Source: Klebsiella phage KP182
Reading direction: 5' to 3' (one strand)
DNA: 64,000 nucleotides
Sequence record: OM337876.1
In this document: piece after piece, positions 3,552 through 6,540 of the stretch
Layout: each line of letters opens with the position of its first letter
How positions within the stretch are numbered: position 1 is the first letter of the stretch
Notes under the pieces: model-generated
What the model saw: only the letters and a program-made list of their open reading frames with translations
Database searches by the model: none
Told to the model about the DNA's origin: nothing
Translations under genes and position numbers: made by a program

Positions 3552-4220
3552 TTATTTATTTACTAATTTTCTTCCTTTATACCATCCTTCTGGTATAGGG
3601 GAATCTTTTGAAATCTTTTTAGCTTCTATTCCATTATTAATCCACATTGTGCCAAATTGTGAATTTTTTGAACCGGATTGAGCTAGTTTCAGTTTATCAG
3701 AAATTTTTCGTTTAGTTTCAGAAGAGTGTGTTTTACCTAAAAACGGATTTCCATTTTTAGCTATATTAGCTTTAACTGCGTCTGCAATGCGAGAACGTGC
3801 ATCTGGTGTAATTCCAGATTTAACCTTATCCGAAAAATTCAGTTTAAATTTAGAATCATTTCTAATTTTATTACTGGTTGAATTTCCTCCAAGTATTCCT
3901 CTTGCTTTCATTTTTGACGGAGTCCAATATGTTGAGTTAACATAGTCAAATCCACCTTCACCACCAAGTTTTAAATTATATACGTTTCCTAATAAAAATT
4001 CTGGTGTAACTATTTCAGATTCCTTTAAATACATCTCCTCAGATGATTCACAATAATGAATAACTTCCTTGGTAAAGTTCTCAATTCCGTATTTTAGAAT
4101 TGCCTTTTTAATTAATACACCTGAACCCATGTAGCCATCATTGATGTCATCAGTTTTATGGGCTCCAACATAATATTTGCCATTTACATTATTGGTTATT
4201 TTATAAATCAAATAGTACAT
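3552..4220 (-). CDS. segB: GIY-YIG homing endonuclease (segB-like position inside tRNA cluster)
   Basis: N-terminal YLIYKITNNVNGKYYVGAH GIY-YIG motif; C-terminal NUMOD3-like repeats (GKTHSSETKRKIS); 222 aa; sits within the tRNA cluster as segB does in T4. Confidence 0.65.
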   Translation of the reverse strand: MYYLIYKITNNVNGKYYVGAHKTDDINDGYMGSGVLIKKAILKYGIENFTKEVIHYCESSEEMYLKESEIVTPEFLLGNVYNLKLGGEGGFDYVNSTYWTPSKMKARGILGGNSTSNKIRNDSKFKLNFSDKVKSGITPDARSRIADAVKANIAKNGNPFLGKTHSSETKRKISDKLKLAQSGSKNSQFGTMWINNGIEAKKISKDSPIPEGWYKGRKLVNK

Positions 4221-4284
4221 AAATTATTCTCCATACCAACTACGTGATAATTATATCACATGGTACGGATAAAGTAAACAAAAG

Positions 4285-4358
4285 AGGCGGAGGCAGGACT
4301 CGAACCTGCGCGTGTCGGGATATGAGCCCAACATTCTACCAACTGAAGTTACTCCGCA
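4285..4358 (-). tRNA. tRNA-Met (anticodon CAT), initiator-like features
   Basis: anticodon arm TTGGG-CTCATAT-CCCGA with three consecutive G-C pairs, closely matching my recollection of the E. coli tRNA-fMet arm; unpaired T1/C72; T-loop TTCGAGT; no encoded CCA. Confidence 0.5.
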
Positions 4359-4367
4359 TTTATCCGG

Positions 4368-4503
4368 GTTCTTGAAGTACTAACAAGTAGCTTGATGTAG
4401 AACACGCTAAAGATATAATCTTCCGAATATAGAGCTTATCCCGTGGGAACAAACAGCTTCGTCCTCGGCATTATCTTATAGGACTCAAACTCATCTTCAA
4501 GAA
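4368..4503 (-). ncRNA. candidate structured RNA closed by a 10-bp perfect stem (GTTCTTGAAG/CTTCAAGAAC)
   Basis: inverted repeat enclosing about 116 nt between tRNA-Met and tRNA-Asp; strand inferred from neighbours. Confidence 0.25.
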
Positions 4504-4519
4504 CTGCCACGTTCTTATT

Positions 4520-4596
4520 TGGCGGACCTAGCGAGGATCGAACTCGCGCTCTCTCCCGTGACAGGGGAGTATTTTATCCAACTAAACTATAGGTCC
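4520..4596 (-). tRNA. tRNA-Asp (anticodon GTC)
   Basis: acceptor GGACCTA/TAGGTCC; anticodon stem CTCCC/GGGAG loop CTGTCAC; T-loop TTCGATC; CCA. Confidence 0.8.
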
Positions 4597-4603
4597 ATAA
4601 TTC

Positions 4604-4719
4604 GCTTTCAGAGATACTCTGGCACGATGCCGAAGCAAAGGGGAACAGGACTCTCATCACCTTGGTACCAGATGAATCTTGTTTAGCACTCTGTTCTAAG
4701 ATGTATCCCTGAAAGCGAA
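4604..4719 (-). ncRNA. candidate structured RNA closed by a 17-bp stem (one G-U) with internal hairpins
   Basis: TTCGCTTTCAGAGATAC pairs with GTATCCCTGAAAGCGAA across about 85 nt; inner GAACAG/CTGTTC stem and GGCA-cga-TGCC hairpin; no ORF. Confidence 0.3.
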
Positions 4720-4826
4720 CTTTCAACGCCGTAAGAAATTATAAGTACGTAGTTATCGTTGAGGGAACTCGTAAACAGGGAATTCTATGCCGACGATTTA
4801 TCAGAACGTCTTCTGACTTCTATATT

Positions 4827-4911
4827 TGGCGGGCCGTGCAGGTATCGAACCTGCCTAGTCATTTCTGACACGGATTAACAGTCCGTCGCTTACCCTCTCA
4901 GCCAACGACCC
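4827..4911 (-). tRNA. tRNA with Asn anticodon (GTT) but class-II architecture (3-bp D-stem, 15-nt variable arm with GAAA tetraloop)
   Basis: acceptor GGGTCGT/ACGGCCC, G73, CCA; anticodon arm ACGGA-CTGTTAA-TCCGT matches my recollection of the E. coli tRNA-Asn arm; variable arm GTCA-GAAA-TGAC-TAG; T-loop TTCGATA. Confidence 0.55.
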
Positions 4912-4917
4912 CGAATT

Positions 4918-4995
4918 TGGTAGAACGTGAGGGATTTGAACCCATCGACATCTCGATTAAAAGTCGAGTGCTCTAACCAGATGAGCTAACGTTCT
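4918..4995 (-). tRNA. tRNA-Lys (anticodon TTT)
   Basis: acceptor AGAACGT/ACGTTCT; D-arm GCTC-ATCTGGTTA-GAGC; anticodon stem CTCGA/TCGAG loop CTTTTAA; T-arm one nt irregular; CCA. Confidence 0.6.
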
Positions 4996-5465
4996 ATATA
5001 ACTATTTATAAATCTTCGTGCTTGGGTATGCGTAACATTTATGGCTTTAGCATATCTGTTAAGAGCTCCCCATTTTGTCATGTCCATTGAATTATATACT
5101 TCAATTCGTGAAGCAACTTCAGTGTCTGTCAGTTTTGAAGCGCTATTTTCTGAAATCTTTTTACGAGATTCTTCAGTATGATGTTTTCCTTTAAAATTAT
5201 CACACTTGCCGCCATAAGGTTTTACTCCATTTTTAACAGCATCTCGTACATTATCAGCATTTGTAGCACAAAATACATTTGTTGGAGAATAAGGACCTTT
5301 GTCACCTATTCTGCACATGCAGTATTCATGACCTTTACGTCCACGCTCAGATAATTTTCCGGTAGATTTCCACCATTCAATCCAAGTATCATACGTAAAT
5401 TCCCAAGGAATTCCACGATACAATGCATTATATCTTTGTTGTTCGTATTTAATTTTCATAAACAC
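4986..5465 (-). CDS. homing-endonuclease-like protein (HNH-like Cys/His-poor variant with NUMOD3-like motif and C-terminal HTH)
   Basis: EYCMCRIGDKGPYSPTNVFCATNADN resembles HNH_3-type core; KGKHHTEESRKKISE NUMOD3-like motif; embedded in tRNA cluster; its 3' end overlaps the predicted 5' end of tRNA-Lys by about 10 nt. Confidence 0.35.
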   Translation of the reverse strand: MFMKIKYEQQRYNALYRGIPWEFTYDTWIEWWKSTGKLSERGRKGHEYCMCRIGDKGPYSPTNVFCATNADNVRDAVKNGVKPYGGKCDNFKGKHHTEESRKKISENSASKLTDTEVASRIEVYNSMDMTKWGALNRYAKAINVTHTQARRFINSYIER

Positions 5466-5473
5466 TCTAAATT

Positions 5474-5560
5474 TGGTGGGGAGTGATGGAGTCGAACCAC
5501 CCGAGCCTTTTGAGCAACAGATTTACAGTCTGTCCCGCTACCCCTACGGTCTAACGCCCC
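5474..5560 (-). tRNA. tRNA-Tyr (anticodon GTA), class II
   Basis: acceptor GGGGCGT/ACTCCCC (one C-T mismatch); anticodon stem ACAGA/TCTGT loop CTGTAAA; long variable arm; T-loop TTCGACT; CCA. Confidence 0.65.
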
Positions 5561-5642
5561 AATGGATATTTTTATTTATACTGCCCTGAAATTAATCAGA
5601 GCAGTTGATAGATTAATAATAACAAAGAAAACCTAAAGCATA

Positions 5643-5993
5643 TTACACAATCGGTGAGCTCTTTGATTTAACCAGGAATACACTATGTGGTGAATCCATA
5701 TGAGATAGCAATACCCGGTGCTCAGGAATTGGACTTGTATGGAACGGAACCACACGATAACCTTTAGGCGTAAATCCTAGCAAAATACCAACGCTTGCTG
5801 CAGAAAGTGACCCGCCGCAATAGTATGATACCAAATCACCAGGCTGGATTTCATTGTCAAGAGAATCAGTTTTGACATGCTTAGGCGTAACTAAATCATT
5901 AGGAATTGGAACGCCTTGTGCATCATGGTATTCATGGGCAAGAAGCTTATAATTCTCTTGATAGAAAGTATTAAATGCAGCTCTGATATTCAT
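5643..5993 (-). CDS. hypothetical protein
   Basis: ORF; start moved to internal Met to avoid overlap with the upstream ORF. Confidence 0.4.
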   Translation of the reverse strand: MNIRAAFNTFYQENYKLLAHEYHDAQGVPIPNDLVTPKHVKTDSLDNEIQPGDLVSYYCGGSLSAASVGILLGFTPKGYRVVPFHTSPIPEHRVLLSHMDSPHSVFLVKSKSSPIV

Positions 5994-6009
5994 CACAATT
6001 TCCTCACAA

Positions 6010-6195
6010 TTAATCTTTGTATGCTTCAGTTGAACCTTTAGCAACAGTCTCAAACCGAGAGTTCAGTATCTCAAAATAGTCCTGATACGTTCCCTGGAGG
6101 GCTTCATAGCATTCTTCTACTGTAGAGTAGACACCTCTGATTTGGTCAGAGCCAGGAGCAGGATAATAATTAGACCAAGTTAAAAGTGCATACAT
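6010..6195 (-). CDS. hypothetical protein
   Basis: 61 aa ORF; TAATG coupling with the upstream small ORF. Confidence 0.35.
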   Translation of the reverse strand: MYALLTWSNYYPAPGSDQIRGVYSTVEECYEALQGTYQDYFEILNSRFETVAKGSTEAYKD

Positions 6196-6374
6196 TACTT
6201 ACGTTTCCAGCTGTAGTGAGCCAAAATAAGAAGCACTGCAACGGCAAGTAGTGATGAATGCAATGCTGCCAGTAGTGCACCTAGTCCTACACCCAAAGTA
6301 ACATAATCATACTTAGTTACTTCTTCACGGTTTAAATCATAGTTTTTGATGAACCACTGCTTAATCTTTTTCAT
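6195..6374 (-). CDS. small hydrophobic (single-TM) protein, 59 aa
   Basis: own translation: MKKIKQWFIKNYDLNREEVTKYDYVTLGVGLGALLAALHSSLLAVAVLLILAHYSWKRK; below the ORF-track length cutoff. Confidence 0.35.
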   Translation of the reverse strand: MKKIKQWFIKNYDLNREEVTKYDYVTLGVGLGALLAALHSSLLAVAVLLILAHYSWKRK

Positions 6375-6540
6375 GCGCTATTTTATCCATTATGAAAGAA
6401 ATGATACCCATTAGAAATGCAACACTTAACACTGATACTGTTTCAGGAAGAGACATAAAGGCTGCACCGATAATGCCAAAACCTAACGCTCCCATGCAGA
6501 TAGTTGATGCAACATTTCTAATTAATTCACAACGTTTCAT
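6361..6540 (-). CDS. small hydrophobic (single-TM) protein, 59 aa
   Basis: own translation: MKRCELIRNVASTICMGALGFGIIGAAFMSLPETVSVLSVAFLMGIISFIMDKIAHEKD; overlaps start of next small ORF. Confidence 0.35.
   Translation of the reverse strand: MKRCELIRNVASTICMGALGFGIIGAAFMSLPETVSVLSVAFLMGIISFIMDKIAHEKD

Follow-up and report, generated by a model that had tools for sequence, protein, structure and literature searches.

Class II transfer RNAs (tRNAs) have a variable region of at least 10 nt folded as a stem-loop and usually a 3-bp D-stem (PMC7609411), and the reviews of the field (including PMC7609411) restrict this class to the Ser, Leu, Tyr and Sec tRNAs, with no class II tRNA-Asn among them. 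Here we describe a tRNA-Asn(GUU) gene of class II architecture carried by Klebsiella phage KP182 in the 64,000-nt stretch of record OM337876.1 that was analysed (hereafter the window, to which all positions refer), and the family of phage tRNAs to which it belongs.

Among the closest described systems are phage tRNAs that oppose the nucleases cutting the corresponding host tRNA. The AriB nuclease of PARIS has three main substrates, among them the Escherichia coli tRNA-Asn(GUU), which it cuts between positions 40 and 41 (PMC12409363), and which is also cut in the anticodon stem by the P2 Old nuclease (PMC12445682). The Lys, Thr(UGU) and Asn(GUU) tRNAs of phage T5 together rescue both PARIS toxicity and T5Mos infection; for tRNA-Asn, a homologue of the window tRNA, resistance and infection rescue were shown only in combination with tRNA-Lys and tRNA-Thr (PMC12409363). 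AriB depends on contacts remote from the anticodon loop: the second AriB monomer lies on the D-loop bases U16-U17 in an AlphaFold 3 model, and the U16C and A41C substitutions impair the cleavage of E. coli tRNA-Lys (PMC12409363). The word "variable" is absent from the main text of both PMC12409363 and PMC12445682.

We propose, with a probability of about one half, that the window gene encodes a functional tRNA-Asn, the reshaped core of which would let host defence nucleases cut it only poorly. Its being a real, Asn-specific and translating tRNA is much more secure than the operation of its long arm as an anti-nuclease device.

A long-armed tRNA-Asn family in phages

ARAGORN identified a tRNA-Asn(gtt) of 85 nt with boundaries exactly at 4827-4911 (minus strand), and Rfam placed it in its tRNA family (RF00005) with 49.2 bits for a gathering score of 29 (E = 1.7e-8), while our own covariance model R1 gave it 101.1 bits. 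It shows the 7-bp acceptor stem, the D, anticodon and T arms and the GUUCRANNC-type T-loop that characterize a tRNA. Folding of the 85-mer with ViennaRNA gave this same cloverleaf as the minimum-free-energy structure (-32.7 kcal/mol, z = -2.5), with the 4-bp GUCA/UGAC arm formed. An earlier note, made from the DNA letters alone, had described this minus-strand cloverleaf with its 3-bp D-stem, 15-nt variable arm, G73 and encoded CCA. Its description turned out to be accurate in every detail, as can be seen in the ARAGORN drawing, and the covariance-model scoring that it proposed as a check yielded the Rfam score given above. With its 3-bp D-stem and its 15-nt variable region comprising a stem-loop, this tRNA has the class II architecture, and not the 4-5-nt variable loop and 4-bp D-stem of cellular tRNA-Asn.

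The hairpin is maintained by covariation. The alignment used for this analysis comprised nine homologues with the same arm layout, and was preferred to an earlier MAFFT alignment of 16 members with differing arm lengths, in which the arm was out of register. In the nine homologues 98.6% of the cells pair on the cloverleaf, versus 31-48% for slid controls, and none of 500 shuffles reaches this value. Covariation occurs in every helix of the cloverleaf, and all four pairs of the variable arm display changes on both sides while remaining 100% paired. The earlier note had also considered a hairpin insertion merely tolerated in the variable loop, a wording that is too weak, since phage families unrelated to one another conserve the hairpin by covariation.

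The window gene occurs at at least 99% identity in about 148 phage records, and 620 records match it, 545 of which cover at least 80% of its length, so that the assembly artefact envisaged in the earlier note does not account for it. T5 and T5-like Demerecviridae, and Proteus phage PM135, carry homologues of this layout that are 81-86 nt long and annotated as tRNA-Asn. Others are found in the T4-like Straboviridae (Moonvirus, Winklervirus, Karamvirus and Angelvirus), where the note had advised looking for the same architecture, as well as in Phapecoctavirus (Stephanstirmvirinae), Marfavirus and the jumbo phage Muenster (Alcyoneusvirus).

To enlarge the family, the IMG/VR viral contigs were searched with a pattern satisfied only where a long variable region comes after a GUU anticodon loop (the long-only pattern). 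Of the 120 matches listed, about 85 proved with ARAGORN to be real genes, 81-95 nt in length, corresponding to 82 unique sequences on which all family counts below are based. These 82 sequences, drawn from the matches listed, carry 64 distinct arm hairpins; their variable regions fold better than shuffled versions (mean z = -3.0), and 45 of the 82 have a 3-bp D-stem. The covariance model R1 applied to 78 loci returned 579 matches, i.e. every tRNA in the arrays, and the resulting isotype-mixed alignment was not used for counts.

A GNRA loop closes the arm of 43/82 family members, and such tetraloops are typical stable or protein-/RNA-docking loops. Host enzymes normally act at the tRNA variable loop, and the long arm takes the place of the 5-nt loop (AUGUC) of E. 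coli asnT. The arm might therefore be a handle or a shield for a factor other than a nuclease, concerned with loss of modification, polycistronic processing, stability or recognition by a phage protein. The data point to no specific factor, no search for a partner protein shared across the phage groups having been made, and we regard this explanation as unlikely.

How common the architecture is was estimated by scanning an unbiased viral sample with a pattern admitting both short and long variable regions (the membership of this sample was partly reconstructed, 2 of its 12 re-used loci being assumed from the scan order). There, 10 of 106 phage tRNA-Asn(GUU) were long-armed (about 9%), versus 1/112 for tRNA-Asp (p = 0.004), and 0/79 for tRNA-Arg(UCU). 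The long-only pattern, applied to 185,579 species of bacteria and archaea with a single genome per species, returned seven real long-arm tRNA(GUU) among the 120 matches listed, a result that, together with the reviews, bears out the statement of the earlier note that tRNA-Asn are class I in cells. Four of these seven genes (loci L145, L169, L209 and L212 in our numbering) sit in arrays of 9-35 tRNAs within 8 kb, comprising respectively 35, 18, 9 and 11 tRNAs; the assemblies with dense arrays include a Thermoguttaceae metagenome-assembled genome (MAG), a Mycobacterium sp. and an alphaproteobacterial MAG. Such dense tRNA arrays are probably prophage or mobile-element DNA. No close homologue of the window tRNA-Asn was found in 5,426 complete E. 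coli genomes. From these surveys, the long-arm tRNA-Asn architecture appears to be essentially viral.

Asparagine identity on a mosaic body

The bacterial asparaginyl-tRNA synthetase (AsnRS) recognizes its tRNA by G34, U35 and U36 of the anticodon and by the discriminator base G73 (PMC9976931). The window tRNA carries this whole set, as anticipated in the earlier note, and the set is conserved in the family, where the anticodon loop CUGUUAA is present in 81/82 members and G73 in 78/82. Furthermore, the U1-A72 pair, which is typical of bacterial tRNA-Asn, occurs in 51/82 family members and in none of the sampled tRNA-Ser.

The earlier note had raised mischarging by the seryl-tRNA synthetase (SerRS). 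According to this explanation SerRS, or another synthetase of class II tRNAs, would charge the tRNA, so that AAC and AAU codons would be partly read as Ser. Serine identity depends mainly on the arm, with the anticodon being ignored, and on the conserved G1-C72/G2-C71 acceptor pairs and the tertiary shape (PMC9976931); the nev-tRNAs offer a precedent (PMC3333845), and the window tRNA itself possesses G1-C72, G2-C71, C11-G24, G73 and a long arm. Yet the serine signature is not that of the family. First, G2:C71 occurs in 31/82 long-arm tRNA-Asn versus 48/53 phage tRNA-Ser of the same contigs, and A3:U70 in 15/82 versus 41/53. Second, the family arm of 3-4 bp followed by 3-4 unpaired 3' bases is Tyr-like, the Ser-like arm having 5-7 bp and about one such base. 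Third, the window tRNA has G3:C70 and a 4-bp arm with three unpaired 3' bases, and so departs from a tRNA-Ser (G1-C72, G2-C71, A/U at 3:70, 5-7-bp arm, about one unpaired 3' base and G73). Fourth, the T5 member of the family helps to restore growth after the host tRNA-Asn has been cut (PMC12409363). The tRNA-Tyr and tRNA-Leu classes do not fit with the G73 of the window tRNA either, this base being an antideterminant for the leucyl- and tyrosyl-tRNA synthetases (PMC9976931): A73 is found in 33/33 phage tRNA-Tyr and 67/72 phage tRNA-Leu, and tRNA-Tyr has in addition the GUA anticodon.

Because the Asn set is conserved and the Ser acceptor signature is not, because the arm is Tyr-like and because G73 is an antideterminant, it is Asn identity on which selection acts in this family, and not the identity of Ser, Tyr or Leu. 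Most likely the window tRNA accepts Asn and not Ser, and SerRS mischarging as its principal role is very improbable. In view of its G1-C72, G2-C71, C11-G24 and G73, this particular tRNA may nevertheless undergo low-level serylation.

The body that carries the Asn elements is composite. The E. coli K-12 asnT sequence served as the reference for the comparisons of the anticodon arm and the body. The anticodon arm, which the earlier note had likened to that of E. coli tRNA-Asn, is identical to it at 16/17 positions, with position 27 as the sole difference and positions 28-43 identical, while the rest of the body shows the background level of identity (53%). The acceptor and T stems match those of E. 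coli tRNA-Lys(UUU) (lysT, L651:555-630) at 23/24 positions, the best score of any of 986 unique phage tRNAs. Less strongly (20-21/24), these stems are also Lys-like in the tRNA-Asn of T5, PM135, Salmonella phage 1-23, EI and Gravdalen, for a family mean of 12.4/24. The window tRNA is thus a mosaic of an Asn anticodon arm, Lys-like acceptor and T stems and a class II D/variable core. Its Lys-like stems agree with the report that Asn identity can be transplanted to tRNA-Lys when nothing but the anticodon and base 73 is changed (PMC9976931).

Other family bodies have Asn-like acceptors (e.g. TCCUCGG/CUGAGGA) or Ser/Tyr-type D-arms. Judging from these comparisons, the arm sits on several frameworks, which may reflect several gains or recombination. 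Nearest-neighbour analysis within the same contigs identified no consistent donor isotype, the nearest tRNA being a short tRNA-Asn at 4/16 loci and a tRNA-Tyr at 3/16. Descent from tRNA-Tyr (GUA to GUU) or tRNA-Ser (GCU to GUU) is unsupported family-wide by this analysis.

The combination of a host Asn anticodon arm with host Lys-like stems raises the possibility of a decoy, which would titrate an anticodon-stem nuclease rather than take part in translation. Positions 28-43, including the cut site, are those of the host tRNA-Asn, the stems resemble tRNA-Lys, which is the prime target of AriB, and inhibition by competition was raised as a possibility by the AriB authors (PMC12409363). Against this stand the family-wide conservation of G73, CCA, a standard T-loop and the exact GUU anticodon, which would be expected if the tRNA translates and which a decoy would not need, and the wide variation of the acceptor stems across the family. 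We consider a decoy improbable.

Defence nucleases and the long arm

We return to the preferred explanation, a functional tRNA-Asn that would escape the nucleases cutting its host counterpart. Host AsnRS would charge the window tRNA through GUU and G73, thereby supplying AAC/AAU decoding during infection. The reshaped core would make it a poor substrate for PARIS AriB and P2 Old, so that the phage would keep an Asn decoder once the host tRNA-Asn pool has been destroyed. Two features of the core could contribute: the arm leaves it directly 3' of the cut strand, where the anticodon stem might be shielded by it, and the D-loop has A16 where E. coli asnT has U16, and hence would lack a proposed AriB contact. 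For the window tRNA we infer all three elements, namely Asn charging, resistance to cleavage and the arm as the cause of any resistance.

The window tRNA is encoded by a phage and bears the anticodon of the host tRNA that AriB and Old cut. It has no substitutions at the cleavage site, its positions 28-43 being those of E. coli asnT, and the host context U36-A-A-U-C|C41 (the cleavage context according to PMC12409363) is preserved. Therefore, any resistance cannot stem from substitutions in the anticodon arm. The T5 tRNA-Asn (83 nt) is 79% identical to the window tRNA, with the same acceptor stem and the same type of arm, but differs from the host at 28:42, where the window tRNA is identical to it. 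In a genuine T5 genome, both tRNA-Asn and tRNA-Thr(UGU) (87 nt, arm GGA-GUAA-UCC) are long-armed, whereas tRNA-Lys(UUU) is not.

The tRNA-Lys gene next to the window tRNA-Asn encodes C16 and G41 in place of the U16 and A41 of E. coli lysT, and the two genes are also adjacent in phages CF1 and Gravdalen. The tRNA-Asn of Shigella phage Sf14 (L654:2561-2637) is a 77-nt class I tRNA, rejected on this account as a member of the family, which differs from the host at position 39 (U36-A-A-C) and, according to the Sf14 paper, scores best as Lys. A changed stem in Sf14 versus a long arm with the host stem in the window would make two possible escape routes, although the comparison is anecdotal.

Long arms are found on other isotypes in the same phages. 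In the contigs with a long-arm tRNA-Asn, tRNA-Thr(UGU) is long-armed in 11/32 cases, versus 7/149 elsewhere in the unbiased sample (p = 1.4e-5), and the A-codon readers as a group are long in 35/221 cases versus 18/417 for the remaining class I isotypes (p = 1.4e-6); phylogenetically, the contigs compared are not independent of one another. Long-arm tRNA-Thr(UGU) of 83-87 nt were located at L655:2634-2720 (T5_ev212, minus strand) and, among others, in the viral loci L030, L033, L035, L068, L079, L083, L094, L099, L123 and L130. Uncultivated phage contigs also carry long-arm Ile(UAU) (e.g. L014:291-382 and L058:7585-7680; 7/37 in the unbiased sample), Met(CAU) (e.g. L022:5587-5674 and L029:2302-2388; several with an initiator-like C1xA72 mismatch) and Lys(UUU/CUU) tRNAs (e.g. 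for UUU, L034:407-494 and L104:9380-9466).

A wider proposal would be that reshaping from class I to class II is a general phage counter-defence for replacement tRNAs that synthetases read through the anticodon (Asn, Thr(UGU), Lys, Met and Ile(UAU)). A short arm hairpin would be added, often with opening of the D-stem, so that anticodon-stem nucleases like AriB and Old, or other effectors that bind tRNA, could not dock or cut, or would be trapped; the window tRNA would be the clearest case, the host cut site being unchanged and evasion depending on shape alone. We put this generalization forward as a tentative one, with the odds against it.

Several points weigh against attributing an anti-nuclease role to the arm. 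Covariation means that the hairpin is kept folded, which alone is no proof of an adaptive role. That an arm causes nuclease resistance in any long-arm tRNA-Asn is itself something that we infer. The T5 tRNA-Asn was required for the rescue of T5Mos and Bas34, and not of T4 or T7, and the AriB authors explain the resistant T5 tRNAs by substitutions close to the cleavage site (PMC12409363). In the unbiased sample, the non-Asn A-codon readers show no significant excess of long arms over the other class I isotypes (28/658 versus 29/885, p = 0.34). Finally, contrary to what the AriB-specific form of the explanation predicts, the U36-A-A-U39 motif is not enriched in long-arm versus short-arm tRNAs with the same anticodon, for either Asn (58% versus 60%) or Thr(UGU) (44% versus 55%).

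The rivals, from the most to the least probable, are a neutral variant that is tolerated, a handle serving some other factor, a decoy for nucleases and mischarging with Ser; these results also bear on the first of them. The hairpin could be a structural variant tolerated without a function of its own, which arose in the variable loop or through class II descent, AsnRS ignoring the region and the pairing being kept only since an unpaired insert would misfold. This fits with the dependence of Asn identity on the anticodon and G73 only (PMC9976931), with the fact that selection against misfolding would produce the same covariation, with the negative test of the UAAU motif and with the lack of a clear signal in the origin analysis. 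Yet the arm occurs on several body types, with acceptor and T stems resembling those of Lys, with acceptors resembling those of Asn (e.g. TCCTCGG/CTGAGGA) and with D-arms of the Ser/Tyr type. It is carried by about 9% of phage tRNA-Asn, whereas cells almost lack it although they should be just as tolerant of it. Moreover, short and long tRNA-Asn are kept together in 16 contigs, and long-arm Thr(UGU), Met and Ile(UAU) tRNAs co-occur in the same phages. We therefore view mere tolerance as rather unlikely, and retain the functional tRNA-Asn with a nuclease-evading core as our favoured explanation.

Neighbouring genes, significance and known systems

The window region 4000-6500 is 99.5% identical to KpV477 and 97% identical to Nispero, in keeping with a T4-like Klebsiella phage, and ARAGORN found 15 tRNA genes on the minus strand between positions 56 and 5560. 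The parts of the tRNA-Asn gene and the neighbouring features are listed in Table 1.

Table 1. Positions in the window of the tRNA-Asn(GUU) gene, its parts and its neighbours.
Feature	Position	Strand	Basis
Whole tRNA-Asn(GUU) gene, class II architecture, encoded CCA	4827-4911	minus	ARAGORN, Rfam, minimum free energy, covariance model
Acceptor stem, 5' strand GGGUCGU (pairs with 4831-4837)	4905-4911	minus	ARAGORN drawing; all 7 pairs covary
D-arm, 3-bp stem GCU/AGC, 9-nt loop GAGAGGGUA	4888-4902	minus	ARAGORN drawing
Anticodon arm ACGGA-CUGUUAA-UCCGU (anticodon GUU at 4877-4879)	4870-4886	minus	16/17 identical to E. coli asnT
Variable region, 15 nt, arm GUCAGAAAUGACUAG	4855-4869	minus	ARAGORN drawing, minimum free energy, covariation
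Variable-arm hairpin GUCA-GAAA-UGAC, 4 bp	4858-4869	minus	All 4 pairs with compensatory changes
Unpaired UAG after the hairpin	4855-4857	minus	
T-arm GCAGG-UUCGAUA-CCUGC	4838-4854	minus	ARAGORN; T-stem identical to E. coli tRNA-Lys
Acceptor stem, 3' strand ACGGCCC	4831-4837	minus	ARAGORN
Discriminator base G73	4830	minus	ARAGORN
CCA	4827-4829	minus	ARAGORN
Adjacent tRNA-Lys(UUU), 6 nt upstream of tRNA-Asn	4918-4995	minus	ARAGORN
Spacer between tRNA-Asn and tRNA-Asp, 230 nt	4597-4826	minus	
Open reading frame, 159 aa	4986-5465	minus	NUMOD3 motif
Second tRNA-Met(CAU)	4284-4358	minus	

The spacer between tRNA-Asn and tRNA-Asp has no notable open reading frame and no Rfam match. Its fold is unusually stable (-66.7 kcal/mol, z = -3.7, a level matched by 0/200 shuffles) and includes a long hairpin in the 3' half; the spacer may be a stable small RNA. 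The NUMOD3 motif of the 159-aa open reading frame is a DNA-binding module of homing endonucleases; in Nispero this frame carries the annotation of a putative homing nuclease, many close relatives do not have it, and its last 10 nt run into the 5' end of tRNA-Lys. Most of the neighbouring tRNA genes encode CCA, whereas the second tRNA-Met(CAU) gene does not and has UC as its tail.

As a gene, the long-arm tRNA-Asn is already known, being annotated as a tRNA-Asn, and its T5 copy has been used experimentally. In the full texts searched, outside which the older T5 tRNA-sequence papers lie, the words "long variable" nowhere accompany "phage tRNA", nor does "long variable arm" occur together with tRNA-Asn and phage. 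As far as searchable, the architecture and its spread are thus undescribed, and an earlier description is possible. The textbook and review rule that long arms belong to Ser, Leu, bacterial Tyr and Sec tRNAs is broken by a sizeable, virus-restricted Asn family that keeps its Asn identity and that hundreds of isolated phages carry, the model phage T5 among them. If our explanation is true, phages would have a second, structural escape route beside the known substitutions in the anticodon loop and stem, and it would help to explain why AriB cleavage of T5 tRNA-Lys is not restored by repair of the cut site alone. The family is also relevant to annotation, isotype models scoring long-arm tRNA-Asn poorly, and to the engineering of orthogonal or nuclease-proof tRNAs.

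Compared with known tRNAs, the family shares with E. coli asnT/U/V/W the anticodon arm, GUU, G73 and CCA and, in many members, U1-A72, whereas asnT differs from the window tRNA by its 5-nt variable loop, its 4-bp D-stem and its acceptor stem TCCUCUG. Bacterial tRNA-Tyr resembles the family in its 3-bp D-stem and in its arm of 3-4 bp with 0-1 unpaired 5' bases and about three on the 3' side, and the closest body within the window is that of its own tRNA-Tyr (69%). However, tRNA-Tyr has A73 and GUA in place of G73 and GUU, and GNRA loops in 4/32 cases versus 43/82 in the family. E. coli tRNA-Lys differs from the window tRNA in the D-arm, the anticodon stem and the variable region, and the likeness to it (20-23/24) is limited to an enterobacterial-phage subgroup of the family.

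As for escape from nucleases, the routes described in phages are substitutions in or near the anticodon stem or D-loop or a shortened anticodon stem, and the window tRNA has no such change at positions 28-43. Other structural parallels are the nev-tRNAs of nematodes and the allo-tRNAs, which also join a long variable arm to a class I anticodon (PMC3333845, PMC7609411). These tRNAs keep Leu or Ser identity, are charged through their body and recode, whereas the long-arm tRNA-Asn family conserves the Asn elements.

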